From contig CBDCXV010000009.1 of the NCBI GenBank assembly GCA_965223905.1, forward strand, positions 416,001 through 480,000: a stretch of 64,000 bases of DNA, in the 5' to 3' direction. This DNA comes from Candidatus Latescibacterota bacterium. GTDB lineage: Bacteria; Latescibacterota; UBA2968; UBA8231. Every line of letters starts with the position of its first letter. Position 1 is the stretch's first letter. The notes beneath the pieces are model-generated. The model had not been told where the DNA came from, made no database searches, and saw only the letters and a list, made by a program, of their open reading frames with translations. Shown piece after piece: positions 5,253-51,156 of this stretch. Both the position numbers and the translations under genes were made by a program.

Positions 5253-5336
5253 GGGGGATTCAAAGGGTAGCTCAGCTGGTTAGAGCACCGGGTTGAGGTC
5301 CCGGAGGTCGTGGGTTCGAGTCCCACCCCTCCCCCC
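5253..5336 (+). tRNA. Atypical tRNA-like gene, anticodon GAG (Leu) on a short-variable-loop body
   Basis: D arm GCTC/GAGC, anticodon stem CCGGG-TTGAGGT-CCCGG, 5-nt variable loop, T arm GTGGG-TTCGAGT-CCCAC; acceptor stem irregular; no CCA. Confidence 0.75.
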
Positions 5337-11682: not shown

Positions 11683-11767
11683 GGCTATCCATTCTCCTTG
11701 ACAGAGGGTGATGGTGTGTTGTGGGAGGGGGGGACGTTGTGCGCGTCCTCCCCTCCCTTTTTGGTGC

Positions 11768-12547
11768 CTACTCCAACAGCCGGCAGGCGATGCGCTCCAA
11801 GACTTCGCGGACCGCTTTCGTCGGCTCGGCGTTGATGATCTCCTGCAACTCGGCGGCGACTGCGGCCCGGACCTCGCGGGAAACCTCGCCGCGCACTTCA
11901 TCGCGGATCCGCTGCCTGTGCCGGGTGGCCTCGGCGATGCGCTCCCGCTCCTCGACGATGCCCAGCGCCCGCCGCACCTGTGCTTTCCAGTGCTCGGCGT
12001 TGAGGGTGTGCAGCCCGTTCTCGTACTGCGCCCGCGCCGCATGGCGGAAGCGCCGGAAGTCGAACGGTACCCAGTTGGCGAAGTCGGCAGCCGCCGCCTT
12101 CAGGATGGCCTCGGCGTCCATGCCGTGCTCGGGGTGCAACTGAACCTCCAGCCGCTTGTCGAGAGGACGGGCGTCCAGTTCCAGCGCCACCCGCTCCAGC
12201 ACGTCGAAGCGGCCCGCCCGGTCATAGGCGTCGATGGCGTCCTGAATCCAACGCTTGCACTGCACGTCGTCGGCCATCTTCACGGCGGTATCAAACTCGA
12301 TGTCCTCCAGGTCGCCGCCGGTGCGGATCTCGGCAGCCCGCCGCAGCTTGACCTTGCCCCCGTCGAAGCGGAAGAAGTAGGCCGGCAGAATCCACGGTTT
12401 CGCCTCGACCGTCAGGGCGATGCACGCCATCTGATCGCCGGCCAGCTTGGCGGTGCAGTGCAGCTTGACGAGGGTGTCATACGACCGCTGCACGGCATCG
12501 CCTTGCCGGTTGTCGGCCCCGGCCCCGTTGCCGTTGGGATGCTTCAT
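11768..12547 (-). CDS. Hypothetical protein
   Basis: 259-aa ORF, AAGGA RBS. Confidence 0.7.
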   Translation of the reverse strand: MKHPNGNGAGADNRQGDAVQRSYDTLVKLHCTAKLAGDQMACIALTVEAKPWILPAYFFRFDGGKVKLRRAAEIRTGGDLEDIEFDTAVKMADDVQCKRWIQDAIDAYDRAGRFDVLERVALELDARPLDKRLEVQLHPEHGMDAEAILKAAAADFANWVPFDFRRFRHAARAQYENGLHTLNAEHWKAQVRRALGIVEERERIAEATRHRQRIRDEVRGEVSREVRAAVAAELQEIINAEPTKAVREVLERIACRLLE

Positions 12548-12560
12548 CGGTTTTCCTTTC

Positions 12561-12619
12561 CGGTTTCTTGAGCGCGGCAGGATTGCCGCGCCCTCGTCAG
12601 CCCGTCGATTCGGGGACCG
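12561..12619 (-). ncRNA. Type III hammerhead-ribozyme-like motif, copy A
   Basis: CGG-UC-CCCG(AAUCGA)CGGG-CUGACGA-GGGCGCGGC(AAUCCU)GCCGCGCUC-AA-GAAA-CCG. Confidence 0.7.
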
Positions 12620-12665
12620 TTAAAGGCTGCCGGTGCCCGAGAGGGGAAAGGCACCGGCAGCCCCT

Positions 12666-12876
12666 TCACGCGGGCCAGCCGCGCGGTTTCTTCTTCCCGG
12701 CGTTGCCCTCGATCCACGCCTTCATCCCTTCCCAATGCGGGGTGCGGCTGTCTGTCAGGAACTCGGCCACACCCTCCGCCTTGGTCCGGTTGGTGCTGGC
12801 AAAGCAGAGTCGTTCTTCGGCGTCGAGGACGCGCCACGTCCGACTGCCGCGAGTCTTGACCGCGAGGTAAGTCCAT
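12666..12876 (-). pseudogene. Small gene with 1-nt frameshift just after ATG (or read-through extension of upstream gene)
   Basis: 69 GC3-biased codons (YLAVKTRGSRTWRVLDAEERLCF...) out of frame with the TGATG-coupled ATG. Confidence 0.5.
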
Positions 12877-13313
12877 CAGCTGGCAGCCTTCGCGCCTACC
12901 GGCTCGCCGCAGGCGTGATGCAGCTTGGGGTAGATGGAGGCGCCGCACCGGGGGCAGTCCTTGGTGGCAGGGTCCAGCTTGCCGCCGTGAGAGCCGACAG
13001 CCTCCATCCCGGTCAACTCCTCCAACAGCGGCACCGCCACGTTGTACCGCTCGATCCTCATGGCGATGGCCAGCGCCGTCAGTTGCCCGCCGCCGATCCC
13101 GAGCAGGGCCAGCACGATGGGCGCCTCGCAATCCTCCTCGGCCCATCCCGGACCGTGATAGAAGCAGGTGAGCAACTCAGCCGGCAGACGGTCCTGAACC
13201 TCGGCGGACAGCCGCAAGCCGCCGTGTGAGGCCGTAGCGACGAGATCGACACCGGCGGCGAGGGTTTCGACGTGCTCGATCCGGCCCCACGGGGAGTGTC
13301 CGGGTTTACGCAT
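12876..13313 (-). CDS. DUF7007-like protein with C-terminal zinc ribbon
   Basis: SPWG...ATASHGG...EEDCE motifs; CPRC...HHAC. Confidence 0.65.
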   Translation of the reverse strand: MRKPGHSPWGRIEHVETLAAGVDLVATASHGGLRLSAEVQDRLPAELLTCFYHGPGWAEEDCEAPIVLALLGIGGGQLTALAIAMRIERYNVAVPLLEELTGMEAVGSHGGKLDPATKDCPRCGASIYPKLHHACGEPVGAKAAS

Positions 13314-13333
13314 GGGTTCTTATCTCCGGTTTG

Positions 13334-13389
13334 CGGTTTCTTGAGAGCGGCTCGTCCGCTCCCTCGTTAGCCCGTTGATTCGGGGACCG
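13334..13389 (-). ncRNA. Type III hammerhead-ribozyme-like motif, copy B (G5A core variant)
   Basis: CGG-UC-CCCG(AAUCAA)CGGG-CUAACGA-GGGAGCGG(ACGAG)CCGCUCUC-AA-GAAA-CCG. Confidence 0.65.
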
Positions 13390-13428
13390 TCCAAGCGCCG
13401 GTGCCTGTCAAGCACCGGCGCTTGGGTA

Positions 13429-13719
13429 TCAGTGCGAGACGTGCAGGCCCGCCTCGGCCATGCCCTCGATCAGGTGCTCGATCGCGGACGCGGGAACGTC
13501 CACGGAGCCGAGAAACGGCGAGTCCTCGGCGTGCTCCTCGATCCACTGCCGGCCCTCGTCGGTGAGCACGTCGACGCGGTAGAACGACCCCGAGTCTCGC
13601 ACCACCAGCACGTCCGGCGACTGCGCCACCATGCGCACCTCGGGCAGAACCTCGAAGCGAGGATCGCCGTTGTGGTCAAAGGAGGTCGCCCGCGCGACCT
13701 CGACGAGTACGGTCTGCAT
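13429..13719 (-). CDS. Hypothetical protein
   Basis: 96-aa ORF, GGGAG RBS. Confidence 0.65.
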   Translation of the reverse strand: MQTVLVEVARATSFDHNGDPRFEVLPEVRMVAQSPDVLVVRDSGSFYRVDVLTDEGRQWIEEHAEDSPFLGSVDVPASAIEHLIEGMAEAGLHVSH

Positions 13720-25478: not shown

Positions 25479-27647
25479 TCACTGAAGGGCCTTCACCTCT
25501 CCATACAATCTCCGCAGATGATCGTCGGACATGTCGATTATCGGCTCGTACATAAATGAGTTCACATGTATATTCTCTGGTGTCATCAAAGCGACACGAT
25601 CAAGTGTAGCGATCACCTCCAGTTCTTGGGGAAACCTCCTCTTGAATTCGTCCGTCATTCCGCGTGCCTGATTGGCCTCCAAAGTTGCCACCCATGCCGG
25701 ATTGCCAATACGACCAGTCATAAATCGCTCTGCACTCAACCTTATCGCGATGGCCAGTACAATCTTGTTTTCCAAGTTCATCCCGGCGCTTGCTACCAGG
25801 CAAGCTTCGGCCTCCTCTGTCAACAACTCCCACAGCAATTTACCGGGCTTCTTTGAGCCTCCCGTTTCCTGACATATTGCGATATATATGTCATCCAATT
25901 GCCCAACCGTAATCGTCTCGGATCCTGGCTTCCAATGCAGCATAGATGTAAGGCTATCATAGTTGGGGTCTTGCTCACCCGTCGTCATCTCAACGAGATT
26001 GCGCAGGAAGGGGATAGAGGCGATCTTTTTCTTCGGATCGTCAAAGAAATGAAGTTTCCAGTCGCGAGCAAAGATATTCCGGATACCCGCCGCCCTGGCG
26101 AGTGTTATTCCATTTTTGTGTCTCGACGCCATCAGGCAATTTGGGTAACCCACAAATCGGCTCTCTATAGTTCGAAGAAAGTCGAAGTTGTGTGTCATAA
26201 CAAGCAGCTTGAACAGCCCGTCTTCGCTAATGTCTTTAAGGTACTGAATAATCGCGTATTTATTTCGGTAGTCGAAAGAGTCCGCAAGGTCATCTACGAC
26301 GATCAACGTCTCTTGTCGGTTCTTCTTGCGTGTCTCGATCTCGAATATGACATTCAGTACGTATAGTGCCTTTCGCTCGCCAGTGCTTAACGATTGCAAT
26401 AGGTCGTTGCGCCTCAGGTCAGCGCTATCGGCTCCGTCGACATACGTGAACCCGAGGTCGATGATCGAGGTCTGTCCAAGCATCACTTCGGTTTTATTTT
26501 TCGCATCGAGCTTAAACGGCACAAAGAAACGGTCGTTGAATATTTCAATGACATTTTCCCACTGCGTTCTCTGAGTGCGGGCGATGTCCTCGATGTCTTT
26601 CCGGCGTTGGCGCGCAGCGTCATACTTGGTCATCCAATCGGCATATAACGCCTCGTGTGTTTTGAGGTACGACTTTAATATCTCCTGCTTCAGGTTCGCA
26701 GGATTGTTCAGCCGCGAAAGTATCGTGGCATCGTCTCGGACATACTTGTAGAAGTGTCTTAGTTCAGCGTTTCGTGTCAGTTGGCCAGCAACGTCGTCGA
26801 ATTTTCGGCGGAGGGCGGGGTCTGCAAAGATGTCGTCCTTTTCTTTGGAAATTATCTTTTCGAGCTCCTGTCTATCGGCGATCTCCCGGTTGCCTGTCGC
26901 TGCGTTTAGGCTCACGGTGTGCTTGGCAGCAAAGAAGCCGTTGTCAGCGAGGCTCTTCGCAATTTTTCCGGCGTTATAGTAGTCGAACATCCCCTTCTTG
27001 AAGTACGTTGATGCAGAGAGGAGCTCGTTGTATCTTTGGGCATACTCCTCAATTGCGTTTTTTAGGTTTTTTGTATCCAAGCCCTTTAAAACCTTATCAT
27101 TAAATATTTTGTCGTATTCGATTTCGGAGAACGGGGCGTCCGGCTGATCCTCGACCTCGCGCTTGACACGGATCAAGGCGGCGTCGAACTCCAATGCGGT
27201 GGGCATGATGGCGGAGGATATTTCGGCTGCCATGTCTTGCTTTGATCGGGACTGGTTTCGGACGGCGGTCAATAGCGTCTCTTTAGCCGATTCGGTCGCA
27301 CGGAGTAGGTCGTCGTATTCCTTCTTCAACGCGGCATTCAAGAGCAAGGTGGATGTTTGCTCGGTGACGCCGAGGCCCTCGTCGTAGGGGAGTACTACCA
27401 GTACAAGGGCACCCTCGATTTCGCGATTTCGCTCGTCGGTGATTTTCCTCGACGTGGTTCGCTTCGGGAAGATCCGGTCTCCGGATGGCTTTCGTTGGGC
27501 TGCATCTTCAAATGTCTTGGCCAACGAGGATTTCATAGCCCCGTTTGGCGCGTAAAGGGCGTAGGCTGGTGCGGTGGAGTAGTCTAAGTCCGTCTGAAGG
27601 CTCTTTATCCCGTAGCAATTCTTCAGGTCGATCTTGACGCGGTTCAT
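25479..27647 (-). CDS. RloC/PrrC-like (AAA_13) ABC ATPase with coiled coil and conserved C-terminal domain; putative anti-phage protein
   Basis: YAPNGAMKSS, LSTGE, IVVDDLADSFD, MTHNFDF; C-terminal TPENIHVNSFMYEP; lower GC. Confidence 0.75.
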   Translation of the reverse strand: MNRVKIDLKNCYGIKSLQTDLDYSTAPAYALYAPNGAMKSSLAKTFEDAAQRKPSGDRIFPKRTTSRKITDERNREIEGALVLVVLPYDEGLGVTEQTSTLLLNAALKKEYDDLLRATESAKETLLTAVRNQSRSKQDMAAEISSAIMPTALEFDAALIRVKREVEDQPDAPFSEIEYDKIFNDKVLKGLDTKNLKNAIEEYAQRYNELLSASTYFKKGMFDYYNAGKIAKSLADNGFFAAKHTVSLNAATGNREIADRQELEKIISKEKDDIFADPALRRKFDDVAGQLTRNAELRHFYKYVRDDATILSRLNNPANLKQEILKSYLKTHEALYADWMTKYDAARQRRKDIEDIARTQRTQWENVIEIFNDRFFVPFKLDAKNKTEVMLGQTSIIDLGFTYVDGADSADLRRNDLLQSLSTGERKALYVLNVIFEIETRKKNRQETLIVVDDLADSFDYRNKYAIIQYLKDISEDGLFKLLVMTHNFDFLRTIESRFVGYPNCLMASRHKNGITLARAAGIRNIFARDWKLHFFDDPKKKIASIPFLRNLVEMTTGEQDPNYDSLTSMLHWKPGSETITVGQLDDIYIAICQETGGSKKPGKLLWELLTEEAEACLVASAGMNLENKIVLAIAIRLSAERFMTGRIGNPAWVATLEANQARGMTDEFKRRFPQELEVIATLDRVALMTPENIHVNSFMYEPIIDMSDDHLRRLYGEVKALQ

Positions 27648-27892
27648 GTGAAGCACTCCATTGGGCCGGATTCCGAAAAAAATCTTGAGGAAGAAAGAAA
27701 AGGGGGCTCGCACTTTGCGGCGGCCTTCTTTTCAATATACGAAACTTCGAGTGCGGCCGTTATGCTCCGGCGGCACTCCGTGGGGAACATTTCGACCCGG
27801 AAAAACGCCAAGAACCGGGCAATCAGAAAAAGTAGCCAGGCCTGGGGGACGGGGACTTGTTCGAAGTTCGGCCGCGGTAGGCTCGCCCTACT

Positions 27893-27979
27893 TCAGGCAA
27901 TCAGGTCTTCGTACCGCAGCCGCCGTCCGTCCATCCGGGCGGCGGCCCGGTTCATCTGAATGATGGTGTCCTTTTCCCG
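27893..27979 (-). pseudogene. IS1595-family transposase C-terminal remnant
   Basis: DTIIQM...MDGRRLRYEDLIA*. Confidence 0.6.
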
Positions 27980-28500
27980 GGGTCTATCCGGGTTTTTCAA
28001 CGGCGAAACCTGAGAACATGACAAGGCCATAGGTCGTTCCCTATGCTTGGTGTATCCCCATCAAGCACTCCCCAGGAAAGGGAGGCGACCTATGACCGCT
28101 ATAAGTTCGTCTCCAAGATGTTCCAATTCAAGGGGTTTCGCGCTGTCGACGTGTGGTTCGAAGGACGCGGGGAAGAAGCGGCCGTCGTGGTTGCGGTGCA
28201 GCCCACAAGAATGGGTGCCGCTGTCCCCGGTGTGGGCGCCGGGGCAAGATCGTACCGGTCATGGAGCCCCGGCGCTGGCGCGACGTCCGGGTTTGCGGCC
28301 GTACCCTCTGGTTGCACCACGCCCCTCGAGAGATCCGCTGTCCGACCCACGGCCGGCACGTCGAGGAGGTTCCCTGGTCGGCCCCTTCGGCCCGGGTCAG
28401 CTACCGCTTCGAATATCTGGTGCTGAAGTACTGCCAGTGGATGCCGCAGGTGGTGGCCGTGCTCCTGCTGGGTCTGGCCCCATCGACGCTGTCCGATCAG
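27980..28500 (+). mobile_element. ISL3-family left end and frameshifted 5' transposase fragment
   Basis: CPRCG...RRWRD...REIRCPTHG.HVEEVPW zinc-finger region. Confidence 0.75.
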
Positions 28501-28920
28501 TTTTGCACCGTGCGTGTCGACGAAAGCCGTGGTCGGCGCAACTGGAAAAAGGATGCGTCGGCCAAGGAGGCGGTGTATGCGAATCGTCGGCGTATACGGG
28601 GAGAGCGAGGAAAGAGGCTTCAACGGCTTCGCGCCGAGTATGTGGAACGCAGTTTCGCTCATACGTACGAAACCGGGGGGCATGCGACGCACTCATCTAC
28701 GCGGCCACACCAACATCTACAAGCGTCTGTATTCATGGCGGCGCCTTCAATCTCGGGCTGGTGATGCGCAAGCTCATCGGAAGGGGAACGCCAAGAGGGC
28801 TTCATGGATTGATATCGGCTTTCGGGGTCTTTGGCGCTCGCATAAACAGTATTTTTAGCCGAATTGTCGGCTATTTGCGGTTGTTGGGTGGTCCATTTCG
28901 AGCCGCCTCTGTGTAGGGGA
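28501..28920 (+). pseudogene. IS1182/IS5-type transposase 3' fragment
   Basis: RAEYVERSFAH...RTHLRG...AFNLGLVMRKLIG across frames. Confidence 0.65.
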
Positions 28921-29041
28921 ATGTTTAGCCTGAGTACCCATATATCAAGGGAAGGAAACCATAACATTCGGCACACCTCCGGTTTCTGGAATTTCCCGGA
29001 TATTCAACGGCTTGCTAGGCTGTTCCCCATCAGTCCGGTTG

Positions 29042-30028
29042 CTACACGGTTTTGAGTTTTTTCTCTAAATATGATCGTAATTTGTTAATGGGTATAATTT
29101 CTATAGGTTGATTCTCTATAGCTTGGGAAGGAAAGCCAATTAAATATTTAGTCACAATTAACCCTTCATCGGCAGTTCCATCTTTGATAAGTTTCATCAA
29201 GATCTCGCGAACTTTGCGCAAATAATGGGCTGGTGGTTGATTTCTCCATACTTTAGCCTCTACAGCTATTTTTTTGGGTCCTACAACTGCCATAAAGTCC
29301 GTTCGGAAGCCGGTCCCTATGGTCTCTGTTGCATATTCGATATTCAGTTTTTCAAGTATATCTGCAATTTCTTTTTCAAGAGCAAACCCCTCATTAATAC
29401 TTGACATCTTAGAAGGTTCATCACTTGTGTCGCGACTTTTCCTTATTGCAAGTAGACTGGTAATAATACCTAAGCTTGCAATAAAAACTCCTGCCATGGA
29501 AGCCAGGATATTTTCGTCGATGGGTTCAAGTTGTCCTAATGTCTTGTAAAAGAAGACACTTACGGCACCTAACCCCGAAGTGGTTACTGCCATTACTTTG
29601 ATTATGTGTTCTCTATGATCTTTAGAAACAAACTCTATCTCACTTGATTTTTTCTTATTACCATTTTCTGCTTGATTCAGTTCATTGAAGACATGGTCTA
29701 GACGTTTTTCTAATTCGATCCTTTGAGGAGACGCAATGAGATCGTTATCAAAAACTGCAGCATAAAGTTGATTTAAAACCTGATCTTCTGAAAGGAGATT
29801 TAAAGAACTGACTTGGAATTCTCTCGCTTTTCCTTCTAAGATTCGTGATATATCCACTAGACAGGGTTGGTAATCTTCTAAGACCATTCGCCGCAGTATC
29901 GCTCTATGGACTGATGTGTTAGCAGCCTTTTCGCGCTCTTTTCTGGCACCTATAGTTTGACGATAGCCTAATAGGAATAAAGCAATAGAGACGAAAATAC
30001 CTATTGCCGTTTGCGTATATCCATCCAT
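29042..30028 (-). CDS. Membrane-anchored PD-(D/E)xK (Mrr-like) nuclease
   Basis: N-terminal TM, two central TMs, C-terminal LEKEIADIL...RTDF...AVEAK...GLIVT; strongly AT-rich. Confidence 0.75.
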   Translation of the reverse strand: MDGYTQTAIGIFVSIALFLLGYRQTIGARKEREKAANTSVHRAILRRMVLEDYQPCLVDISRILEGKAREFQVSSLNLLSEDQVLNQLYAAVFDNDLIASPQRIELEKRLDHVFNELNQAENGNKKKSSEIEFVSKDHREHIIKVMAVTTSGLGAVSVFFYKTLGQLEPIDENILASMAGVFIASLGIITSLLAIRKSRDTSDEPSKMSSINEGFALEKEIADILEKLNIEYATETIGTGFRTDFMAVVGPKKIAVEAKVWRNQPPAHYLRKVREILMKLIKDGTADEGLIVTKYLIGFPSQAIENQPIEIIPINKLRSYLEKKLKTV

Positions 30029-30264: not shown

Positions 30265-33200
30265 CTATCCCAACACCTCAACTACTTCCGCAATCACCGC
30301 CACCCCTTCATTGCCCTCTTCGACGACGATTTCCGCGAATTTCGGATTGATGGGCCGCAGCCGGATCGAACCCCCAAGCTCCCCATCATTTCGCACCCCC
30401 TGCTCAACCCGCTCATATCGCTTCACCGTGTAGCTGCCCCCGTGCTCCGGGTCGGTCGCATCCCGAAGTTGCGCCAGCACGTTCCGCCCCTGCCTGCTAC
30501 CTCCGGGATCACGACGGAACAGGCACCATGTCCCGTCCGGGATCTCCGGCTCCATCGAACGCCCCACGACCTTCCCCACGAACATCCCTTGGGATAATCC
30601 CCGCGTCGTTTCCAACTCCGCCCAGCCATCCGGATCCGGCACCTGTCCTTCGCTGAAGCCTCCGGCAGCTGCTCGAAGACTGTAAATGGGAACGCACGTG
30701 CGAAACATTTCGTCCTCTGAGGGTTCATCTATGCGCCGGAATGGCCCTTCGATTATCTCTGTTTCAACCGGCTCAGCAATCTCCGGCCCCTCTGCCACCA
30801 TATCCTCGGCCCGGGCCGCAAACCACTGATCCGCATCCTCACTGATCCGGTCAAGGGCGTCCCGCCCGATCAGGTTCCGTGCCAGCCGTTTGAAATGCTT
30901 CAGCATCGCCTGTGAATCGTCCAGGTCGGCTACCGTGATCTCCAGAACCTCGTGCCCCTGGCTCCGCAACTCACCACGGATCGCACGGTCCCGGTCCTGA
31001 GTTTCGGGGTTGCCATGGATGTGCTCAGATAGCCCGTCCAGATAGATGAAAATCTTTCGCTCTTCCTCATCCGGATCTTCGTAAGTCACATCCGGGGTGG
31101 TTGAATCGAGCGGCCTAGGCAGTAATCGTTGCTCCTGCCAGTGGCCATCCGGGAGGCCCGCAGCTAGAATCATTCGTCGCAGTTTCTCCTCGGCGACGTT
31201 TACCGGCTGGTCCTCCGAACCACCCCCACCGCCCAGAGGCAGCACGGCGGGGATCTCGTGCTCGACGTCGAGCCCGTCTCCCCACTCCTCGATGCGATCG
31301 AGAATGAGCTGCCGGTTCAGGTGTTCGTGGTAGAACGCATTGCGATACCGCTGCAGGCAGTCTATGCAGCTCCTCGCGCACTGCCCAGGGCATTCGGCCG
31401 CGACGCGCTTGGCCTCGGCCACGATTTCCTCAAAGCGCAGGCAAAGCTGCCACAATAGTCCCGACCCGCCCGGCATGGGATCGTAAAGCATGGCGTCGAC
31501 CTCGTCGCTGCCGATCTTGCCCACTACAAGCACTTGCAGATCCTCGTGCTCCATATCCAGGACCTCTGCGGCTGCGAACCGCAACCCTTCTGCAATGGAG
31601 AATGCCTCCTCCTTCGAGGCGCAGTCGGGCAATTTCAGGACATCCGCCGTGAGGTCGGCGTGGAACGCTGTCGCTGACGGGCGCCTTCCGCACCATTCCA
31701 GATGCTTCTCCTCGAAGTCTTGGCGCTGGGGCTGCGACGACATTGGCGACACGCTCTGCCCGCAAACTCGGCAGACGGGATATCCGAACTCGCCCCGTGA
31801 CCCGATGACGTTGCTGGCCCCCACATTGACGAGTGTCAGCCGCACGGCCCTACGCACATGCAGCGGCCGGGTCCCCCAGCGGAACGCCTGGCCTCCGTTG
31901 TGCTGCTCCAGCTCGCGTCCGTAGATCGCCACCCCCATCTGGAAGCGATTCTCTTCCTCGTCCGTGATACGAGAGCTGTGGACCAGTGTCACATCGCAGA
32001 TGGGGATACTCGTGATCCGGCTGGTCGTGGTGTCGCCGCTCACATCCCCTCGGGACTCCAAGACGGCCTGCGACTCCGGGCTAACCTCATAGGTGATCGC
32101 GTCGCGCCGGCCTTCACCCACGTCAAGGGCATAGCGCCGGGGCACGAACTGCTGCCCGTTGGCGTAGATTCGGTTCCCGGGTACGTACTCCCGCAGGGCC
32201 ACTCCGGGAGGGCGTGGCAGATCGAAGTCATAGATGCCACGGACCCAGCGAGGCACTTCTGCAAATCCAATCACGGTTCCCGTCTCGAGACCGTAACCGG
32301 GCAGGAAGCCCTCCGCCGCCAGGACCCCGTAGGTAAAGACATCGTCGATCCCCTCGGCCTGCTGCCGTTCACGCAGATCGACCGCCTTCATCCGCCGGAC
32401 GAGACGGTCGCAGCGGCGGTAGAATGACTGCTGCTCGTCGTCGAGGGCCCCGACCTTGCGGCGGTGGTCCTCGAGCATGGCCATCTGGTCCAAGGCCCAC
32501 CTCAGCCGCCGCCGCAGCCGGGCGATCACCGCTTCGAGCTCACCCGTCATGCCAAGGACATATGCCGCAAGTCGTTCTCCTGAAACGACCTGTTCATCGG
32601 CCACCGGCCAGCCCTGCTGAAACGCTCTTGATACGGCGTTTTCGATGTGGTCCTGGTGCTTCGTGATCACCGTGTGCAGGACGCTTACGTCGAGCGGCTT
32701 GCCGCGTACTTCTCCGGCGGCATTGAAGAGGTAGTCCCGGATCAGTGACGGAAAGGCCGTCTTGAGGGCAGGCTGGATCTCCTCCCGGTCTGTGTCGCTC
32801 AGCCCGCTGCTCGGCCTGGCCAGGTGGTGCAGCACCGTCACGACCTGGGCGTGGACGTGTTTGGCAACCATCAACTCGTTGGCCATGTTGAAAGCAGGTG
32901 GATCGATCCGCCCCCCGAGCATCTTCAGCGGTTCGGAGAAGTAAGCCCGGTCATGGCTGACATTTCGGCAGTAGGTCAGGTTCACGGCCATCCGGTGCCG
33001 CCGTCCGGCGCGGCCTGCGCGCTGCCAGTAGTTGGCCGCCACGGGCGGCACATTCCTCATCAGTACGGCATCCAAGGCGCCGATGTCGACCCCAAGCTCC
33101 AACGTCTGCGTGCACGCCAGCGTGTTGACAACCTCGCTGTCTCCCTTGAAGAGCTCCTCGATCTCCTCCCGCTCGCGGTGTGGCACCATGGCCGTGTGCT

Positions 33201-36200
33201 CGCGGGGGCGCAGCAAGATGTAGTCCTGATCGAGAAGCTGCAGGTCGTAGCTTTCCGGATCCTCCGCCACGTACTCCACGGTTCCGTCGCACCGCCAAGC
33301 CATGCACTTGTCCAGCGGAGGCCGTCGCACAGTGCGGCGTCGGCAGGTCATGCAGCGATATACGCCACTGTTGGGGGAAAGCATGAGTCTGTCAGCATCG
33401 AGCTGAAAGGTGCCGGGGCAATTGGGGAGGGCTCTGCCGTAGCTGCCCATCAGCGTCTGCGGCACGAGGAGGCGAGTGTCCTCCGTCAGGTAAGCCCACA
33501 ACTCCTTGAGGAATTCTTCCATATCATCCCCATCGACACCCCACTTCCGGGCGATGTCCATGACCGTCGTCCGGTGACCCGTGCTGGACAGCCACTGGAC
33601 AATCCGTCCCCGGTCGTCGGAGGGATCGCGGGTCAGCTTCAGTCCCCTGGGCACACCGCTCATGTCCGGAAGGTAGCCTCTCTCGATTTCTCGCATCCCA
33701 GCCTGCCAGTACTTGCTGAAGATGTGACCCGTGCGATCCAGCAGGACAGGCCGGCGTCTCTCCAAGTCCAGTAAGCCGCGGACGCCTTTGTTCAAGGTCT
33801 CCGCCGGAATCCCAATGCGGCCAGACCATTTGGTGACAAAGTCGTTCCGGGAATCGACCCCGAGGTAGTCTATTCGCATGCGGCCCCAAGGCTCTAGACC
33901 AATCTGCTGGCGAGCAGAGGCGGTGATCTCACGGAGGACGAGGATTCGCAGCAGGTACTGGCGTTCTTCCCGGTGGACCACGCCTCCGGCCTCCTTCGGG
34001 GCAACCGCCCATACCTCCGGCAACAAGGTCTGCGAAAGGGCGTCGTCTTCCTCCATCATGGCGTCCAATCTGTGGGTCAGGTCTCCGACAGACAGGCTGG
34101 TCGCAAGGCTTCTGGTCATCAGTGACCTCAGGCGGAACCGCCGGGCATGGTCGCGCATCCAGCCAGCTTGGAAGGCTGCGTCCTGTCTGTTATCGGCGAA
34201 GACCAGGAGCCGCTTCCGCTCGGCATGGTGGATCATGTCCTGGGCGAGCACGTGCACGTCGGCCACGTTGGTGGCCCGAACCGGCCGGACCGGCTCGCGG
34301 AAACTGCCCAAACGTTGTCGGCCCGTGGCCCCGCAGCAGACACACCGGGTGAGGTGACCCGGCCGTTTCTTCCGCTGGGGAATGGCGAGCAGGGGAATCT
34401 GGGGTCCGCCCTGACCGCAGGCTAGGCAACGAACGTGCGTGTCGGCGTGGGCGGCACCGCAGTACCGGCATAGATACAATTTGGCGAACCGGTGATTCTC
34501 TTCATCCTCTTCATCATCGGATTCGCTTATCAAGTGGTCGATCAGTAGCAGCCGCCGGCCTCCGCGCACCTGGTCAAGGGGCTCCCAGTAGATGGCGTCA
34601 CCACTTGCGATGCCGCCACCGGGCATGCGGGCCTCGTACTCGAATCCGCCCAGGCTGTGCTCGAAATAGTGCTGACCGCAGGTCGTGCAGGTGCTGACGC
34701 GGAATCGAAGCCCGTCACCATTATCCTCTTCAATTTCCTCTGCCGATAGGTGGAGAACCGGCTCGTCGCTCCCCTCGGCGAAGGTCACGACGGCAGCCGT
34801 TACCCCACGGAGGAACCCGTGCACGACAGGCCGCACCAAGGGCCGACTGTCCTTGCGGGCAGCCGCCCCCAGAGTCAGCCAAAGCACAAGTTCCTCCTCT
34901 CGGACTTCACGCCCAAGAGCTTCGGCAAGCTCTTCGAGGAGATCTCCAAGTGCCCTCGGTGTCTCGAGAAGCAAGGCTACCTGGTACAGCAACTCATTTT
35001 CGGAGAGGTGCGCGTGCAAGACCTCCTCCCAGGCACCGTCTCCGAAAGAAGTCTCGGTCAGTTTGCCCCAGACCTGCTGGAGGGCCTCTCCAGGTTCATC
35101 GGCGTCAACAGCCGCCAGCACCTCACTCAGGCGTTCTGCCGGCTCGCTCAAGGGCGACGGAATCTGCCGGTCTTCCGCCCAGGTGTCCTCCTCGTAGACC
35201 TCCTGAACCGTTGCCACGGAGTCCCGGTCCACCCCAAAGAACCGGCTGGCAAAATCACGAGCCCCATCCGGATCGTCCTCGTCCACGATCGTGGCTGAAG
35301 TGGCTACGCATGTCGTCTGGTCCGCATCCCGGTCACAGAAAGCCCGGAGACGCCGAACCAAACAGGCTGCCTCCGCACCCCCCGCGCCAGAAAAGGTGTG
35401 CGCCTCATCGAAAATCAGGTAGTCGAGGCGCGCCCCGTCGAACAACTCGACATCGCTCTGGCGAGTCAGAAGCAGCTCAAGCTGCTTCACATTCGTAAGC
35501 AAGAGGCGTGGCTGCTTGCCCGCTGTCCGCATCACTTCCCGGCTGCACACCTCTTCCGGGGGATGGATCGCAGCACCCTCTCCCCGCTGACGAGCCTCCT
35601 TCAAAGCAGCCTGATAGTCTGCCCTCGAGGAGCCGGATTTCAACCGACGTCCGGTCATGTCGGCCTCGTGCTCGGGCGTCTTGCCGATATACATTCCGAA
35701 GGGGATCCCCGTTCCCGCCAACAGCTCCCGCAGTCGGCCGAGCTGGTCCTCGGCCAGAGCGTTCATCGGGTAGACGATGACCGCGCAGATCCCCGATGGC
35801 GCCTTCTGATCGCGAAGCTCGAGACAACGGCTGATGATGGGGTAGAGGAAACACTCGCTCTTCCCGGAACCCGTCCCCGTCGAGATCAGGGTCGGATAGC
35901 CCTCCACAATAGACCGGATGGCAGCTTCCTGATGTCCGTAAAGCGTCGGATAGGGAACGAGCTGCCGCATGTGGCCATGGAGAACCCCCTCTCCCGTTAG
36001 CGTCGCGATCGAGGCACCCGGGATGAAAGCTCGGGAAAGGCTTACGTAAGGACCTTTGAGTAGAGGGGTCTGACGGGTGGTATCCAGGGACAGGAGATCC
36101 CGCATCTGCCGATGCAGCCCCTCATCGGCGAAAGGGTAGGCAGTCAGCTGGTAACGGAGAAAACTCTGCACAACCCTTTCGGTGTAGGAAAGAGGATTCA

Positions 36201-36207
36201 GGGCCAT
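30265..36207 (-). CDS. Giant DEAH helicase-DUF1998 (DrmA/DrmB-like, YprA family) with C-terminal Vsr/DUF559-like nuclease and S24 peptidase domain
   Basis: TGTGSGKS, DEAH, ATSAT, TLELGVDIG, QRAGRAGRR; LYDPMPGGSG plus Cys cluster; TPD...YLDG..H; AAAG, GRSM, TVKR. Confidence 0.88.
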   Translation of the reverse strand: MALNPLSYTERVVQSFLRYQLTAYPFADEGLHRQMRDLLSLDTTRQTPLLKGPYVSLSRAFIPGASIATLTGEGVLHGHMRQLVPYPTLYGHQEAAIRSIVEGYPTLISTGTGSGKSECFLYPIISRCLELRDQKAPSGICAVIVYPMNALAEDQLGRLRELLAGTGIPFGMYIGKTPEHEADMTGRRLKSGSSRADYQAALKEARQRGEGAAIHPPEEVCSREVMRTAGKQPRLLLTNVKQLELLLTRQSDVELFDGARLDYLIFDEAHTFSGAGGAEAACLVRRLRAFCDRDADQTTCVATSATIVDEDDPDGARDFASRFFGVDRDSVATVQEVYEEDTWAEDRQIPSPLSEPAERLSEVLAAVDADEPGEALQQVWGKLTETSFGDGAWEEVLHAHLSENELLYQVALLLETPRALGDLLEELAEALGREVREEELVLWLTLGAAARKDSRPLVRPVVHGFLRGVTAAVVTFAEGSDEPVLHLSAEEIEEDNGDGLRFRVSTCTTCGQHYFEHSLGGFEYEARMPGGGIASGDAIYWEPLDQVRGGRRLLLIDHLISESDDEEDEENHRFAKLYLCRYCGAAHADTHVRCLACGQGGPQIPLLAIPQRKKRPGHLTRCVCCGATGRQRLGSFREPVRPVRATNVADVHVLAQDMIHHAERKRLLVFADNRQDAAFQAGWMRDHARRFRLRSLMTRSLATSLSVGDLTHRLDAMMEEDDALSQTLLPEVWAVAPKEAGGVVHREERQYLLRILVLREITASARQQIGLEPWGRMRIDYLGVDSRNDFVTKWSGRIGIPAETLNKGVRGLLDLERRRPVLLDRTGHIFSKYWQAGMREIERGYLPDMSGVPRGLKLTRDPSDDRGRIVQWLSSTGHRTTVMDIARKWGVDGDDMEEFLKELWAYLTEDTRLLVPQTLMGSYGRALPNCPGTFQLDADRLMLSPNSGVYRCMTCRRRTVRRPPLDKCMAWRCDGTVEYVAEDPESYDLQLLDQDYILLRPREHTAMVPHREREEIEELFKGDSEVVNTLACTQTLELGVDIGALDAVLMRNVPPVAANYWQRAGRAGRRHRMAVNLTYCRNVSHDRAYFSEPLKMLGGRIDPPAFNMANELMVAKHVHAQVVTVLHHLARPSSGLSDTDREEIQPALKTAFPSLIRDYLFNAAGEVRGKPLDVSVLHTVITKHQDHIENAVSRAFQQGWPVADEQVVSGERLAAYVLGMTGELEAVIARLRRRLRWALDQMAMLEDHRRKVGALDDEQQSFYRRCDRLVRRMKAVDLRERQQAEGIDDVFTYGVLAAEGFLPGYGLETGTVIGFAEVPRWVRGIYDFDLPRPPGVALREYVPGNRIYANGQQFVPRRYALDVGEGRRDAITYEVSPESQAVLESRGDVSGDTTTSRITSIPICDVTLVHSSRITDEEENRFQMGVAIYGRELEQHNGGQAFRWGTRPLHVRRAVRLTLVNVGASNVIGSRGEFGYPVCRVCGQSVSPMSSQPQRQDFEEKHLEWCGRRPSATAFHADLTADVLKLPDCASKEEAFSIAEGLRFAAAEVLDMEHEDLQVLVVGKIGSDEVDAMLYDPMPGGSGLLWQLCLRFEEIVAEAKRVAAECPGQCARSCIDCLQRYRNAFYHEHLNRQLILDRIEEWGDGLDVEHEIPAVLPLGGGGGSEDQPVNVAEEKLRRMILAAGLPDGHWQEQRLLPRPLDSTTPDVTYEDPDEEERKIFIYLDGLSEHIHGNPETQDRDRAIRGELRSQGHEVLEITVADLDDSQAMLKHFKRLARNLIGRDALDRISEDADQWFAARAEDMVAEGPEIAEPVETEIIEGPFRRIDEPSEDEMFRTCVPIYSLRAAAGGFSEGQVPDPDGWAELETTRGLSQGMFVGKVVGRSMEPEIPDGTWCLFRRDPGGSRQGRNVLAQLRDATDPEHGGSYTVKRYERVEQGVRNDGELGGSIRLRPINPKFAEIVVEEGNEGVAVIAEVVEVLG

Positions 36208-36274
36208 ATGTTATCTTGTCTCTTGTCTTTGAAAGAAGGTCGGGATCGCAAACTCGACGTTCGTTCGTTGTTTT

Positions 36275-39200
36275 TCACTGGAAGTTTCCATTCTCCCCCA
36301 GAAGGTTGCGTGCGTGCAGTTCACACTCCATCCAGGACACGTCCAGATCTTCTGCAGATTGCCAGTCATAGAACTTTTTTCCAAGACGACTCCTCACGTG
36401 CAGGGGATTCGACTTGGAAGGATCTAAATTCAGCCCCAGATCCGAGAGGTCTAATGTCTCCGGCAGCTCCCAATTCAGATCTTCTCCATACATAAGCGCT
36501 GCAATAGCCAAGACAGACTGACGGAGTTCCGGTTCATCTGACTGACCAGTGCGCCAGAGCCCCTTGCTGCGTAGCTGTCTTCTGGTTTGGCTGTTGCGGT
36601 ATTTTTCAGTGGGCCACTCACATTGATCCAAGATATGGCACATATCCACTTCATCGAGACCGTAGAGCCGGGCAACAGCGGCATCCAGAGCAGACAGCCT
36701 GCGAAGGCGTTCATACCTGGAGATTGCCCACTGGCGCCGCCACCCTTTCTCATTCCTGAAGCCGAGCCATACTGGGGCGTGAGCAATGCTGCAACACGAC
36801 AGACCAAGCACGGATAAAGCCAAGTCCCGTTCAACAAAATGACAGGAGCTACGGCGTGGAAGCGGGTTCTGCTCAAACAGGTGGTAATCGAGATGGAGAC
36901 CGACCAACCGATTCCTCGTCACGAAGTCGAACACGAAGGAGTTCATGCATGCGGCAAGGACCAGAGAAAGAACCTCATCCTCACACCAGAAGATGGCAGC
37001 CGTATCTCCCGTGGGGTATCGCCAGATGGGAGTGGCGATGGATGACCGTGCATTTGTTGCTGAGCCGACGCGCATGTGTGACACCTTTAGACCGTCGAAA
37101 TACCTTTCTCGGCCTTTTAGCGTTGCCACGCCTACAAGAAACTGGGGCTCAACCTGCTTGGCGTCCCAGGAAATATCGCGCCACACTGCGCCTCGTCCCT
37201 TCCCGCTCACCCAAGCCTTCTGGCTGTAGTCGAACTGCCCAATCATCCGCCCTTCGTACAGGGGCAGCGCCACATCCTCCACTCGCTCCTCGTCGATCCA
37301 CTGGTTCCCATCCCGGGACAGGATGATGCCCTCACAGATCTCTACCCGCTTGGCCCCCGGGGGTGCCGGGGAGGTCGGCGTCCTCGGCTTCCACTCTCCT
37401 TTCAGCCAGCGGTTATACTCGTCCGGCTGGTAGCCCTTTTCCTCCCAGTGGGGGCGCGGGAGGAACAGGCCGGAGTCGCTCGTCATGTCGAATTCTCTAG
37501 CGTACTCAATTTGCCAGCCTCCTGGCCCATCGTCACCCAGCAGGACCGAGTTGGCATAAATCTTCTCGAGAATCTCCAGATCGCGGGACGACTGGATCTC
37601 CAGGATTGACGAAGACTTCGGAGAGAACTGTTCTACTTGCCGACGCTCATACGGTGTCACGTGCGCCTCGGCGGTCTCCCAGTCATCGAGTCGCCGGCGC
37701 ATGAAAGCCGTCCTAATAGCCTCCGTTCGGCCAGACTTCTCGATAATGACCGGATTGAACTTGAAGCGGCTGTCGATGTCGAAGACCTTGTCGCGGTTCT
37801 CGAACCCGAACAGCCACTCCCACCGACACTTATCGAGGAAAAGTGACCTCAGTGGCTCTGTCCCGTGGTCTGAATAGAGCCCCGAGGGCACGATGCAACC
37901 CATGCGCCCCCCTTTCCGCAGCAGGGCATGACCCCGTTCCAGAAACAACTTGAACAAATTGACGTCTGCCGAACCCTGGTAACGATACGCGTGCTCGGTA
38001 TCTGCGTACCCCTTTGACTTTGCCCTGGAAGCACGCCATTCGGCGTGCATTTCGGCGTTCTTTTTGCCACGTGTCGGGGAGAAGCGGTGGGTAGAAGTGT
38101 CAGCAGTGGCCGGATCGCCGAAGGGGAATGCGGCATACTTGAAATAATTCGAATGGCTGCGGATGTCGGCTTGGTAGTCGAGCCAACGGGTTTCCAAGGT
38201 CTCATCCGCAAAATACTCGGTCTGCTTGCGCAGCGCTTCCTGCTTGCCATAGCTCCGGTAAAGCGGATCGACGTTGGAGAAGAATTCCTTCGAGTTGGGC
38301 TTGGCCACTTCCCACGGGGGATTCCCAAGGATAGCGTCGAAGCCGCTGTTACTCGTGCAGAAGACATCCGGGAACTCCAGCTCCCAGTGAAAGAAGCGTT
38401 GTTTGGCTGCAACCCGCTCTGCAATGATTCTAGCCCTGTCCTCAGGATGACCGAAGCTCGAGGGCGGTGGGGCGGCATCCAGGGAGTTAGGTGGCCAGTA
38501 CCAAGAGGCACACCAAAGGTCGAAGGCTTCTTTCAAGGAGCGCCAGCCCGGGGCTCCGAGGAACTCCAGGCGATAGCGACGGGTCTGCTCACTTGCGTTG
38601 TGCACGGGCATGGAGTGAAGATCTTCGAGGACCTCCACCATTTCGTCGTGTACTCGGGCTGGCTCATCGGCGTACTGCTCACCGAGCTGCCACTGGCCCG
38701 TCATGCTCGCCAGGAAGTCAGGGACTAAGGTTTCCTTGAAAAATGCCTTTAGGACCTTGCCACGTAGGTTCTTCCCAAAGTGCACGCCGTTACTGTGTGT
38801 CTTGTCGCCACCCTCGCGGTTTTTCCAAGCCATGGCCGGGTAGTGCAGGAACTGGTCGAACCAGGCACCTACCAGTGAGTTTCCGCATTTGATCTTGTGG
38901 TCGAGGAAAGAAAAGGGCAGCTCCCGGTCCATCGTTTCAAGCCACAGCGCCAAGCGGCACAACTCCACGGCCAAGGGGTCCAGATCGACTCCGTAGATAC
39001 AGTGCTCGACCACGTAGCGCCTCAGGATCGCCTTCATCCGAGGCTCGAAATCACCCTCACCCGGGGGACTTGGCAGTCGAAGACCCTGCAGCGACTCCTC
39101 ATCGGCGGCCGCCTCTTCGAGTCCCAATAGCTGGTCAACCGGACGGCGCCAGTCACCGTCCAGCCGATCGTGCTCATGCAGGGCATCGTAGAGAGCCTCG

Positions 39201-41203: not shown

Positions 41204-44200
41204 GCCGGACCTCCCGGCAGAATGATTTCCACCGTGATGGGAAGGACCTGAGCTTCCCCTCGCATCGTGTACCGTCTTGGGATCAGCTCTCCTGTGATGT
41301 GCCTTCGTTCCCGGACCAGTTGCTCCCTCACTTCCTCGTAGTGTCGCTTCCTGCGCTTGACCTCTTCCTCCCGGTTTGCGATATCCTGCTCCAGGTCCTC
41401 GAGCCGTCGCTCGGCATCGAACAGCTCTCCCTGAGCCCGCCGTACCTGCAGTTGCTCAATTTCCCGATCGAGTCGCGCCAAGGTGCTGCTTTCGATCATT
41501 GCCGAGACTTCCCCCTGCCGGCTTTGGTAGCGCCGGTTCTCATCATCGAGGGCCTGAGTGCGGTCTTGCTCCAGCTGAGCATTGAGTTGCTGTGCAAGCT
41601 CCGCAGCACCCTCCTGAATCCAAGCTCTGATGTCTTCGCTGACCTCCAGCCACAACTCGCGGGCAAGCTCGACATCGCCATGTTGTGGGGGTCCGTAAGT
41701 TGATCGCAGCTGGAGGGCTGGAAGGTGTTCCAAGGGTGTGTCGAGGCGGCCCTGACGGACCGGAAACCGCACCGTCCTGACCCAGTGATGAAAGGTTTCT
41801 CGCAGCTCGTTGATTGCCAGGTGCTCGACTGTGAGGTGTAGCAGTGCGTCTGCCTCCGGTACGGGGCCCCGGAATACGCCCCAGCGAGAAGAGGCCAATT
41901 CGATCCCGCCAGGAAACCGTTGTCGAGTCAGCGAGGAAAGGGCTTTCTGCAACATCGGGTGGGATAGGTGCATCAAAACGGTGTCCCGCCGCGGACGGAA
42001 CACTGGCAGGCCGTTGGCAGCATGCACGAACACCCCGGGGTCGAACGCCAAGCCCCGCAGTGGTCCAATTCGCCCGCCCTTGGCCGGTAGCCGGATCGTG
42101 TCGTCGATTACGGATGTCCAACTTGGTGGCTGAGGTTCGACTATCGCTGAGCGGCCCAGTTGATCCGGCCCGCTGATGCGAGGGCCGCCCGTCCCCAGAG
42201 CCATGGCGCTGTCCAACGTTGCCCTCAGGCTTATCGGTTCAAGGTCCAACTCACCCGCGATAACGGCCAAGTCGGCCTCAGGATCCACTCCTTCGCCCTC
42301 GTCGTTCATGTCCACTCGCTGGTCTCGCGGGATTTCGGTTCGCCTCCGTACCACCTCGACGCGAACATCCAACTCACGCTGCACCTTATCGAGCGACTCC
42401 CCCTCGATCAGTCTCCGGAAAGTGATCTCGTCGAACACTTCACCCGTCGTCCCCAGGTCTTCCCGGATCGAGTCCACCTTGCGCACTACGAGATCCAGAA
42501 AGACCAGATCCTCATCCTCGCCGCTGACAAAGTGCCAGACCGTTACGTCCCGGGCCTGTCCGTGGCGGTCGAGGCGGCCGTTTCGCTGTTCGAGGCGGGC
42601 AGGATTCCAAGGAATGTCGTAGTGAAGCAAATAGCGCGCGGTTTCCTGGAGGTTCAAACCCTCGGAGGCCGCATCGGTCGCCAGGAGAATGCGCACCGGA
42701 TCGTCAGGGTCGTTAAAGGCTGCCTTGATCTCCTCTCGTTCGTCGTCGTCCATGCCACCGAAGAGCCGCAGGACCCGTTCGTCCGAATCCAGATCATTCC
42801 GGAGTCGAATCAGGAGATAGTCGAGGGTGGTCTTGTACTCCGTGAACACAACCAAGCGCTCGTCGTTGCGCCATTCCCCGTCTATTCGAAGTTGCTCTTC
42901 GATCAGCACAAGCAAGGCGTCGTAGCGGGAATCCTCTCCAGGGATGGTACTTCTTGGATCTTCGGCCTTGGAAAACCCGAGTCCTTCGACGGCTGCCTGC
43001 ACGGCTGCCATCTCGACACTCAGTTGCGAAGCCATGGGACGCATCCACGCCCCGATCGTGGACGCGGCCGTCTGTTGCCGGCTCTCAGCTTCTCGGTCGT
43101 CGACGGTTTCCTCCGCTACGACCTTTCGAGCGGCCAGGACCTCCCCCTCTCCCACTTCTTCGTCCTCAGCAAGGCCCGCCTGCAGCCTCAACCAACTCTC
43201 CGAGAACGCCATCGGGCATGACAACAGACGCTTCCCGAAGACCTCGATGGCGAATGTCCCGGCAAGCCGACGTCGTTTCGATTCCCTAAACACCAAGTCT
43301 CGCACCTTCAAGCGCAGCGCGGAGAAGGCGCTTGCGAGCTGCTTCTCATGGCGTCCCAGCTGGACCAGGAGCGCTTGAGGCGGCAGGCGCTCGCAGAACC
43401 GCTTGGGATCGCTGCGTTCATTGATCTCCCTCTTGAGCCGGCGGACCAACACTTCCTGAACCCGTGCACGTTCAGCGGGGCCCAACTCGTCGTTCTGGCT
43501 GAACCGTACTGGATCCAGCATCTCCAGTAGCCCGGTAAATGACCGCGTATGTCCGTTGTGAGGTGTCGCCGTCAGGAAGAGACGGTGCTCGAACATGGGC
43601 GCAACCTGGCGAAGCATGGCACACAGTTCGCTCTCTTCCCCGAATGGAGAAGGCGTCAGGTTGTGAACTTCATCGACGATCAGCAGATCCCAGGGCAGGC
43701 GAGCGGCCTCGGGTTCATGCTGACTCGCAGATCGGAACTGCTCGAGGATATCCGGTTGTTTGAGGTAATGGTAACTGCAGATAATCCGGGAATGGCTGCG
43801 CCACGGATTGGCGTCCATTCCCATCCGGCGCCGCATTTGGGTGGTTGCGTCCCGATCAACGACATCGAACTGTAACGCGAACTTCTCCCACATCTCATCC
43901 CGCCACTGCAGCCGCAGGGACGCCGGAGCCATAATCAGAACACGGCGGATCTGCCGCCGCAGTAACAGCTCGCTGAGAATCAGCCCCGCCTCGATCGTTT
44001 TGCCGAGGCCTACGTCGTCGGCAATCAGCAAGGACACGCGGGGCATCCGAAGAGCCTTCAGCAATGGCATAAGCTGGTAGTCCTCGATCTGGACAGCTCC
44101 GTGGAACGGCGAGGATACCGGCAGGCGCACCATTGGCCCCGAACCGTCCGGGTCGATGAACGGGCTGCGCGCCGACCACCGACACGCCCGGACGAGGGCC

Positions 44201-44475: not shown

Positions 44476-44564
44476 TTTTCGCCCCCTATGTTCGCCGTAG
44501 GCCAAGGATTCGGCAAGAAGGAAAACTCCGATGCTGGCGCTCTACTACCTGTTTTCGGAATCCC

Positions 44565-50677: not shown

Positions 50678-50683
50678 CTGACA

Positions 50684-50959: not shown

Positions 50960-51156
50960 TAATCTCATATTTGGAAAGAGGAAAAGAAGCAGAAATGAAC
51001 TTACCAATTAAGGATGTGGAAAAAGCTATCCCCTCATAGAAAGTTGATGAGATGAAATACTTGATTCTCTCGTAAAAACCGCCCTCTCGCAGCCCCGGTA
51101 ATCAGGGATTCTTGGTATATTTGGTGTATACTAATCCGTCACATACTTCCTCTTTA

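Follow-up and report, generated by a model that had tools for sequence, protein, structure and literature searches.

INTRODUCTION

No small ribozyme has been studied as well as the hammerhead, whose core is generally regarded as invariable. Hammerheads have been built into synthetic ribozyme insulators and cleavage-activated ribosome-binding site (RBS) designs, such as RiboJ and hammerhead aptazymes in which the Shine-Dalgarno (SD) sequence is buried in a ribozyme stem. In bacteria, clustered hammerheads flank single genes in prophages and around ardA of Agrobacterium tumefaciens; these cleave in vitro and in Escherichia coli, and it was proposed that they divide a polycistronic transcript into pieces the length of one gene (Perreault et al. 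2011, PMC3088659). The core variations described in that study comprise A6a, U13a, 2a/2b, U3-A8 and others, none of which, in the part of the paper available to us, falls between stem II and G12. The plus-strand hammerhead of chrysanthemum chlorotic mottle viroid (CChMVd) carries an extra A10 between A9 and G10.1, and its trans-cleavage rate is reported to be only moderately lower (PMC3705267). The role of bacterial hammerheads is still open (PMC6765202, PMC6155905). Here we analyze two cassettes, each containing a hammerhead-like motif with an AA insertion next to its core, in a stretch of 64,000 nucleotides (nt) from a Candidatus Latescibacterota bacterium (contig CBDCXV010000009.1, positions 416,001 to 480,000; this whole stretch is referred to below as the window). 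The feature is real, conserved and of hammerhead architecture. Judged from its sequence and its relatives, it is rather probably an uncatalogued type III hammerhead subclass that acts as a self-cleaving, mRNA-processing element.

RESULTS

Two hammerhead-like cassettes precede start codons in one operon.

A first-pass annotation of the window had placed two intergenic cassettes (12561-12662 and 13334-13425) on the sense strand of an operon, each running from a stop codon through a hairpin and a type III hammerhead fold to an RBS and an ATG. Reading of the minus strand confirmed both positions, and the order holds at both sites. The features are listed below in the order of transcription, with bit scores for R1, a covariance model built from the four copies found in this genome, and for R2.

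13429 to 13719, minus strand: open reading frame (ORF) of 96 amino acids (aa) upstream of cassette B; no Pfam match; stop codon TGA at 13431-13429
13391 to 13425, minus strand: GC-rich hairpin of cassette B, with arms CCAAGCGCCGGUGC and GCACCGGCGCUUGG and no U-run after it
13334 to 13390, minus strand: copy B of the hammerhead-like motif; R1, 76.4 bits; R2, 60.8 bits
13311 to 13327, minus strand: SD sequence GGAG (13327-13324) and ATG (13313-13311) of the DUF7007 gene
12668 to 12666, minus strand: stop codon TGA of cassette A, directly preceding its hairpin
12625 to 12662, minus strand: GC-rich hairpin of cassette A, with 13-bp arms GGCUGCCGGUGCC and GGCACCGGCAGCC, then UUUAA
12561 to 12620, minus strand: copy A of the hammerhead-like motif, 60 nt; R1, 89.2 bits; R2, 62.9 bits
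12545 to 12558, minus strand: SD sequence AAGGA (12558-12554) and ATG (12547-12545) of the 259-aa gene

The GUC triplet, stem I (CCCG/CGGG), the core (CUGACGA in copy A and CUAACGA in copy B), GAAA and stem III all match the earlier description. Copy A, which five bases separate from its hairpin, has the C of GUC at 12615 and a 9-bp stem II; copy B has the C of GUC at 13385, the change G5A in its core and an 8-bp stem II. The compensatory change from C-G in copy A to A-U in copy B is present at the fourth pair of stem II, and the stem II loops differ. The AA reported before GAAA is found in both copies and can now be placed more exactly, as a 2-nt bulge at the junction of stem II and the core, between the closing C and G12. 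Stem I is closed by the loop AAUCGA or AAUCAA (AAUCRA). Stem III (CGGU/ACCG in both copies) has 4 bp, counting the A-U next to the core, and its 3' strand ACCG consists of the last A of GAAA followed by CCG. A 28-base degenerate word for the shared part had two matches in the window, whereas 100 shuffles gave none, and stems I and II together with the upstream hairpin appeared in the centroid folds of all four genome copies, with z-scores of -2.5 to -6.5.

A reading of the cassette hairpins (12662-12625 and 13425-13391) as intrinsic terminators was rejected because neither is followed by a U-run; the bases 3' of hairpin A are UUUAACGG and those 3' of hairpin B are ACGG. Neither hairpin was among the terminator-like sites of the minus strand. 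A separate 15-bp GC hairpin at 11723-11757, between the 259-aa gene and RadC, received a terminator-like score for the plus strand; in the sense (minus) direction, it follows a stop codon, lacks a U-run and resembles the cassette hairpins.

The same unit recurs in the genome and in one relative.

Four copies are present in the whole genome, every one of them on contig 9 and in the same orientation, and the reversed-pattern control found none. Copy C has the textbook core CUGAUGA, and copy D has an entirely different stem II that is yet fully paired. When R1 was run over 61 related genomes, 14 had a match at E<=0.1, but the motif was found only in the genome of the window and, as a single copy, in a second genome of the same genus (G002); inspection of the alignments showed the matches in the other 12 to be hairpins or fragments without the core. 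In four of the five copies of the genus, hairpin and motif recur as a unit of about 95 nt whose arms are common to copies A, B, D and E. Likewise, four of the five, both window copies included, have a GC hairpin upstream and no anti-SD word. Copy C is the exception: its upstream hairpin is a different one, with CUCC in the 3' arm.

The order DUF7007 gene, hairpin, motif and 259-aa gene recurs in a second element of the genome and in G002, so that a homologue of the 259-aa gene follows the same cassette in both. In G002 (L013 2140-2260, minus strand), the DUF7007 gene has no motif in front of it, and the 259-aa gene behind it has one; thus, cassettes are acquired or lost singly between close elements. 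A scan of the genome collection with a first pattern gave seven stretches, about the number expected by chance on a rough estimate, and only L031, apparently G002 itself, scored with R1. This pattern required GGUC and GAAACC and so misses most copies of the phage type; the spread of the motif in cellular genomes is not gauged by it.

A wider family resides in phage and metagenome contigs.

The first pattern also recovered a metagenome contig (L041) with two copies in a phage structural module, one of them right after the major head protein gene. Here stem III reads UGGU/ACCA or CCAU/AUGG, stem I reads CUGG/CCAG or CCUG/CAGG, and stem II is unrelated to that of the window copies; the changes are compensatory in all three stems, and AA-GAAA is unchanged. 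A second pattern, restricted to the invariant features, gave 88 matches with 50 distinct cores in 86 stretches of uncultured viral contigs. R1 over 93 sources then returned 102 copies (65 distinct), some beyond those that the patterns had found; outside the genus, these came from the one metagenome contig and about 90 uncultured-phage contigs. The sequences of the family span 35-69% GC, from AT-rich phage contigs to the bacterial island at 62-69% GC. Two copies, 300-2976 nt apart and flanking single genes, were held by 10 of 92 sources. Phage copies lack the upstream GC hairpin, and the genes downstream of them are mostly small ORFs of unknown function, with an ATPase and PHROG 554 among them.

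A BLAST search of plasmids listed 37 records with weak matches (E of 0.2-7), and the two that were inspected (L042 and L043) resembled ordinary coding sequence and not the motif. GenBank phages gave no match to the one AT-rich and the one GC-rich phage copy used as queries.

A few deviants were seen: L132 904-953 has U4 changed to C, L073 3647-3699 (minus strand) has a single A for AA and a disturbed CUGA block, and L118 6357-6435 (minus strand) has an extra base in CUGANGA and a long insertion in stem II. These are probably decaying copies, like copy B of the window. A metagenome stretch (L039 2151-2230, minus strand; 18.3 bits) is close to copy M1 of L041 in stem I and its loop, with CUUGGAAG replacing CUGAUGAG, and may be a degenerate relic.

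The helices covary and the core is conserved.

In an alignment fitted to the model and containing many closely related sequences, 98.1% of cells over the 65 distinct sequences were standard pairs, compared with 77.7% in shuffles (none of 500 reached the observed value) and 18-43% with slid partners. Changes on both sides were seen at 13 of 17 pairs, with at least 3 in each helix. The search patterns fixed the outer pair of stem I and left free its inner two pairs, all of stem II, and stem III except for the A-U next to the core. RNAalifold predicted the same three helices, with 11 of 15 predicted pairs compensated. The helices thus lie around a junction in the type III order and show covariation. 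This covariation in stems I to III favors the proposal of the first-pass annotation.

The AA bulge and the core were also recovered when the searches left them free. A search with only the 5' half and GAAA within 8-38 nt found AA after stem II in 87 of 87 stretches; 86 read C-AA-GAAA, and the 87th read U-AA-GAAA with a G-U closing pair. With seven core bases left free, 79 matches were obtained, of which 77 read CUGA[U/A/C]GA, one had U4C and one was an unrelated chance match; CUGANGA is intact in 77 of the 78 true members. Copy A has this block, and copy B departs from it at G5. The G5A change, suspect from the start, is the sole change of its kind among the 65 distinct sequences. G12, A13, A14 and the A15.1-U16.1 pair are each present in 65 of 65, C17 is present in 64 and the closing pair G10.1-C11.1 is present in 63. 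Both window copies have GUC as the NUH triplet together with A15.1-U16.1. Stem I always has 4 bp and an AAUNRA hexaloop across the family, and U-G occupies one pair of stem II in 43 of the 65. The core of the subclass can be written as C3 U4 G5 A6 N7 G8 A9, G12 A13 A14, A15.1-U16.1 and C17. Conservation is higher in the unpaired core than in the stems, and the retention of this core over 35-69% GC while the stems turned over is what a catalytic requirement predicts.

In one respect, the window copies depart from the hammerhead plan: GAAA does not join stem II directly to stem III, since AA intervenes in both. Complementarity of 4 bp between loops I and II was found in 32% of the distinct sequences; with shuffled loops, about 21% had at least 4 bp.

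The motif lies directly before RBSs.

Among the 78 copies whose flanks are distinct, 74 are followed by an SD sequence and a start codon 8-38 nt after stem III (median, 18). An anti-SD word (CUCC or CCUC) lies within 12 nt upstream of stem III in 50 of the 78, and in none of them does it occur in a control segment taken further upstream. Read by eye, this word can pair with the downstream GGAG(G) and thereby extend stem III, as at L046 5620-5700 (plus strand) and L051 3790-3875 (minus strand). Minimum-energy folds support masking of the SD sequence weakly: pairing to the flank on the upstream side was seen for 33 of 78 copies, compared with 126 of 390 controls with a shuffled flank and 14 of 78 with a flank taken from 21-40 nt further upstream. 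The count of anti-SD words is the one clear signal. In the window copies, the SD sequence is mostly unpaired in the folds. In other copies (ATAG type), a small hairpin downstream carries the SD sequence in its loop, and the 5' arm of this hairpin shares bases with the 3' strand of stem III.

Rfam models miss the variant but detect a sister family.

The Rfam 15 hammerhead models were used for comparison, among them RF00008 (Hammerhead_3; gathering score, 48.5). At the Rfam gathering score, the window yielded only its tRNA and 13 related loci yielded no match, and neither window copy scores above a curated hammerhead threshold. Over the genome, RF00008 gave nothing at E<=1 and RF02276 gave a single 19.2-bit match, below its cut-off. 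Weak matches to microRNA, small RNA and small nucleolar RNA models were rejected, since the GC hairpins alone account for them. The motif matched none of those described in Rfam, and the claim of the first-pass annotation that the motif is new stands in this respect. Because GAAA does not adjoin stem II and the Rfam threshold is not reached, the motif is a variant and not an ordinary hammerhead.

A sister pattern with a 5-bp stem I and an AAUUAA loop was found in 50 viral stretches, and 16 of these are on loci where the AA variant occurs as well. This family occurs among the viral contigs L044-L166 (for example, L044 1687-1745, plus strand). It has the canonical C-GAAA junction, and in most members the 3' strand of stem II has an A/U bulge at a distance of two pairs from the junction. 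A sister sequence from the same phage contigs matched Hammerhead_3 at 33.4 bits (E=3.6e-06), below the gathering score. Thus, the models detect ordinary relatives while the AA variant falls out completely, and Rfam-based annotation would miss the sister family too. The co-occurrence of the two links the AA variant with hammerheads of the ordinary type III. Comparison of the two sequence families suggests that the bulge on the 3' strand of stem II may be a docking partner of loop I that is shifted to the junction in the family whose stem I has one pair fewer.

The operon belongs to a putative mobile island.

The minus-strand operon runs in the order 96-aa ORF, DUF7007 gene, 69 in-frame codons, 259-aa ORF, RadC, 202-aa ORF and ParB-like gene. 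The genes next to the cassettes are as follows.

12876 to 13313, minus strand: DUF7007 gene, 145 aa, between the two cassettes; Pfam PF22653, E=2e-16
12666 to 12875, minus strand: in-frame continuation past the TGA of the DUF7007 gene (12878-12876), 69 codons (68 sense codons and a stop codon)
11768 to 12547, minus strand: 259-aa gene, family unknown

The stretch 12666-12875 is gene-like in its third-position GC content (GC3, 0.83), has no ATG, GTG or TTG near its start and has no Pfam match; a DUF7007 homologue of the same genus has a different C terminus without the 68-codon extension. Readthrough or recoding, an unusual start codon and an assembly error are all possible. The 259-aa protein is present in 2 of 168 genomes of the phylum and has 14 relatives among 5.8 billion proteins searched; an alignment-based scan of metagenome contigs confirmed none.

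The operon adjoins a tRNA gene (5264-5330), and an AAA_25 ATPase and a cluster of genes for helicases and methylases are found farther on in the window; the region is read as an integrated mobile island. Three very large consecutive genes occupy 30265-44505 (minus strand): a 1980-aa protein with DEAD helicase, MZB and S24 peptidase domains, a 1642-aa Eco57I/MmeI-type methylase and a 1101-aa SNF2 helicase. As a set, they resemble a defense island beside the mobile-element genes. The GC content falls to 49-52% at 26001-30000 and 50001-52000, compared with a window average of 61.6%, which suggests further foreign DNA inside the island.

DISCUSSION

The first-pass annotation had proposed, as its first option, that a new variant of the hammerhead cleaves the polycistronic RNA. 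The variant itself is favored by the covariation, the conserved core, the AA, the lack of an Rfam match and the position before start codons; that it cuts is something we infer from these features. If so, the RNA would cleave itself after C17 (12615 in copy A) and the operon transcript would be split between the upstream and the downstream ORF. The upstream fragment would be left with the GC hairpin near its new 3' end, where the hairpin would presumably be protective, and the downstream fragment would begin with a 5'-OH, followed by the body of the folded ribozyme and an accessible RBS. Stability and translation would then be set separately for each cistron, in line with the role put forward for the hammerhead clusters of prophages and ardA.

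Under this self-cleaving reading, the AA bulge would be a tertiary-contact element for the loop of the short stem I and not a defect. More specifically, and only as a tentative suggestion drawn from the sequences, the AA bulge might receive the AAUNRA hexaloop in a new tertiary contact that defines a distinct architecture, and the anti-SD helix of the phage copies might act as a cleavage-activated translation switch. The sister family supports the receptor idea, in that its bulge usually lies two pairs up and its stem I has 5 bp, both features seeming to move together. In the phage copies, the helix between anti-SD and SD would extend stem III, cleavage would turn this unimolecular RBS-masking helix into a bimolecular one, and once melted, it could not re-form, so that the switch would be irreversible.

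Several points weigh against self-cleavage. G5A is a strongly inactivating change in hammerheads; copy B, which carries it, is probably weakened or dead, with nothing but the fold retained, and copy A is the good candidate for activity. Stem III of the window copies is short (4 bp), and among the minimum-energy folds, that of copy B alone includes it. The usual tertiary contact is not evident, because the complementarity of loops I and II is not clearly above that of the shuffles. The patterns that recovered most of the 102 copies prescribe a large part of the core, and because many copies are close relatives, the copy counts are not independent events. No match to a hammerhead or to another ribozyme family was obtained at E<=10 with a 1.2-kb region, with 81 nt around copy C or with 91 nt around a phage copy. 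Moreover, the 2a/2b two-nucleotide insertion, at a different junction, impaired cleavage in standard conditions (PMC3088659), and Eckert et al. (2023) treat GAAA and the adjoining stem sides as an uninterrupted block in the part of their paper available to us (PMC10085705).

In a rival reading, the fold derives from a hammerhead and no longer cleaves. It would then be a structured module of the 5' untranslated region that insulates and presents the RBS or stabilizes the downstream message, with selection on the fold and on protein or ribosome contacts and not on catalysis. We regard this as somewhat unlikely. An AA at a junction that is closed in known hammerhead alignments (PMC10085705, as far as the available part extends), the failure of every Rfam hammerhead model to match, the retention of the whole fold in copy B despite G5A and the tight tie of the motif to the SD sequence and start codon would all be accommodated. 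What it leaves unexplained is the retention of every catalytic nucleotide (CUGANGA, G12, A13, A14, the A15.1-U16.1 pair and C17, at the counts given above) over 35-69% GC although the stems changed completely, and canonical hammerheads stand at equivalent positions in the same phage contigs.

Alternatively, the ribozyme might be conditional, with AA and loop I docking a protein or a small molecule or sensing ions, so that cleavage would occur only in certain states. The AA and the AAUNRA loop are invariant, neither lies within the canonical core, and no Watson-Crick contact between the loops is evident. There is also a precedent in the saltern hammerheads, which carry a two-nucleotide core insertion and were poorly active in standard conditions, for which reason the authors tested high-salt rescue (PMC3088659). 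However, no partner gene is consistently adjacent, the downstream genes being diverse small ORFs, an ATPase and PHROG 554 and the head gene of L041 lying upstream, and the hosts and elements are very different (AT-rich phage contigs and a bacterial island at 62-69% GC); we therefore consider a conditional ribozyme improbable. A DNA-level repeat (a recombination site, a miniature mobile element or a replication hairpin) with an incidental likeness to a hammerhead, which the first-pass annotation had entertained as a cassette-recombination repeat, would fit the shared arms of the 95-nt unit in four of five genus copies and the copy before the DUF7007 gene that is absent at that gene in G002, but it is very improbable given that the helices use many G-U pairs, which are C-A mismatches on the other strand (U-G at one pair in 43 of 65), that all copies are on the sense strand just before an SD sequence and start codon, that phage copies lack the hairpin and that the stems are less conserved than the unpaired core.

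Returning to the proposed self-cleaving subclass, because searches reject core changes, roughly a hundred copies in phage contigs and in a bacterial island stayed outside Rfam. If the subclass cleaves, a conserved bulge of two bases can be accommodated where stem II meets G12, a very short stem I is likely to be braced in a different way and the number of bacterial and phage ribozymes grows. The placement before the RBS, often with an anti-SD word, bears on the role of bacterial hammerheads and offers a model of mRNA processing coupled to translation. Without cleavage, the subclass would clearly exemplify a ribozyme fold retained for another purpose.

Among described systems, Hammerhead_3 (RF00008) is the closest. 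The subclass shares with it the type III helix order, the UH site, CUGANGA, GAAA, A15.1-U16.1, GUC and G10.1-C11.1; it differs in the invariant AA between C11.1 and G12 and in a stem I that always has 4 bp and an AAUNRA hexaloop, and it gives no match at E<=10. The CChMVd hammerhead has an extra nucleotide at the same junction of stem II and the core (PMC3705267), although there, in the part of the paper available, it is one nucleotide on the 5' strand in a single viroid, whereas here it is two on the 3' strand and invariant throughout the family. In our literature search, we found no description of an insertion between stem II and GAAA, and the supplementary alignments of Perreault et al. (2011) and others might hold such variants.

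Like the engineered RiboJ-type designs, the motif places a hammerhead directly 5' of an RBS, and an anti-SD word accompanies 50 of 78 natural copies; unlike those designs, the window copies are natural and have a GC hairpin upstream in place of the anti-SD word. As in the prophage and ardA clusters, there are several motifs per mobile-element operon, each between two genes, here in the company of ParB-like, RadC and DUF7007 genes, which are typical of such elements. The clusters described in the available part of that study differ in having consensus cores, and its authors dropped matches with any core mutation (PMC3088659). Since hammerheads that flank single genes in mobile elements were already known, the novelty lies in the core variant and not in the arrangement.

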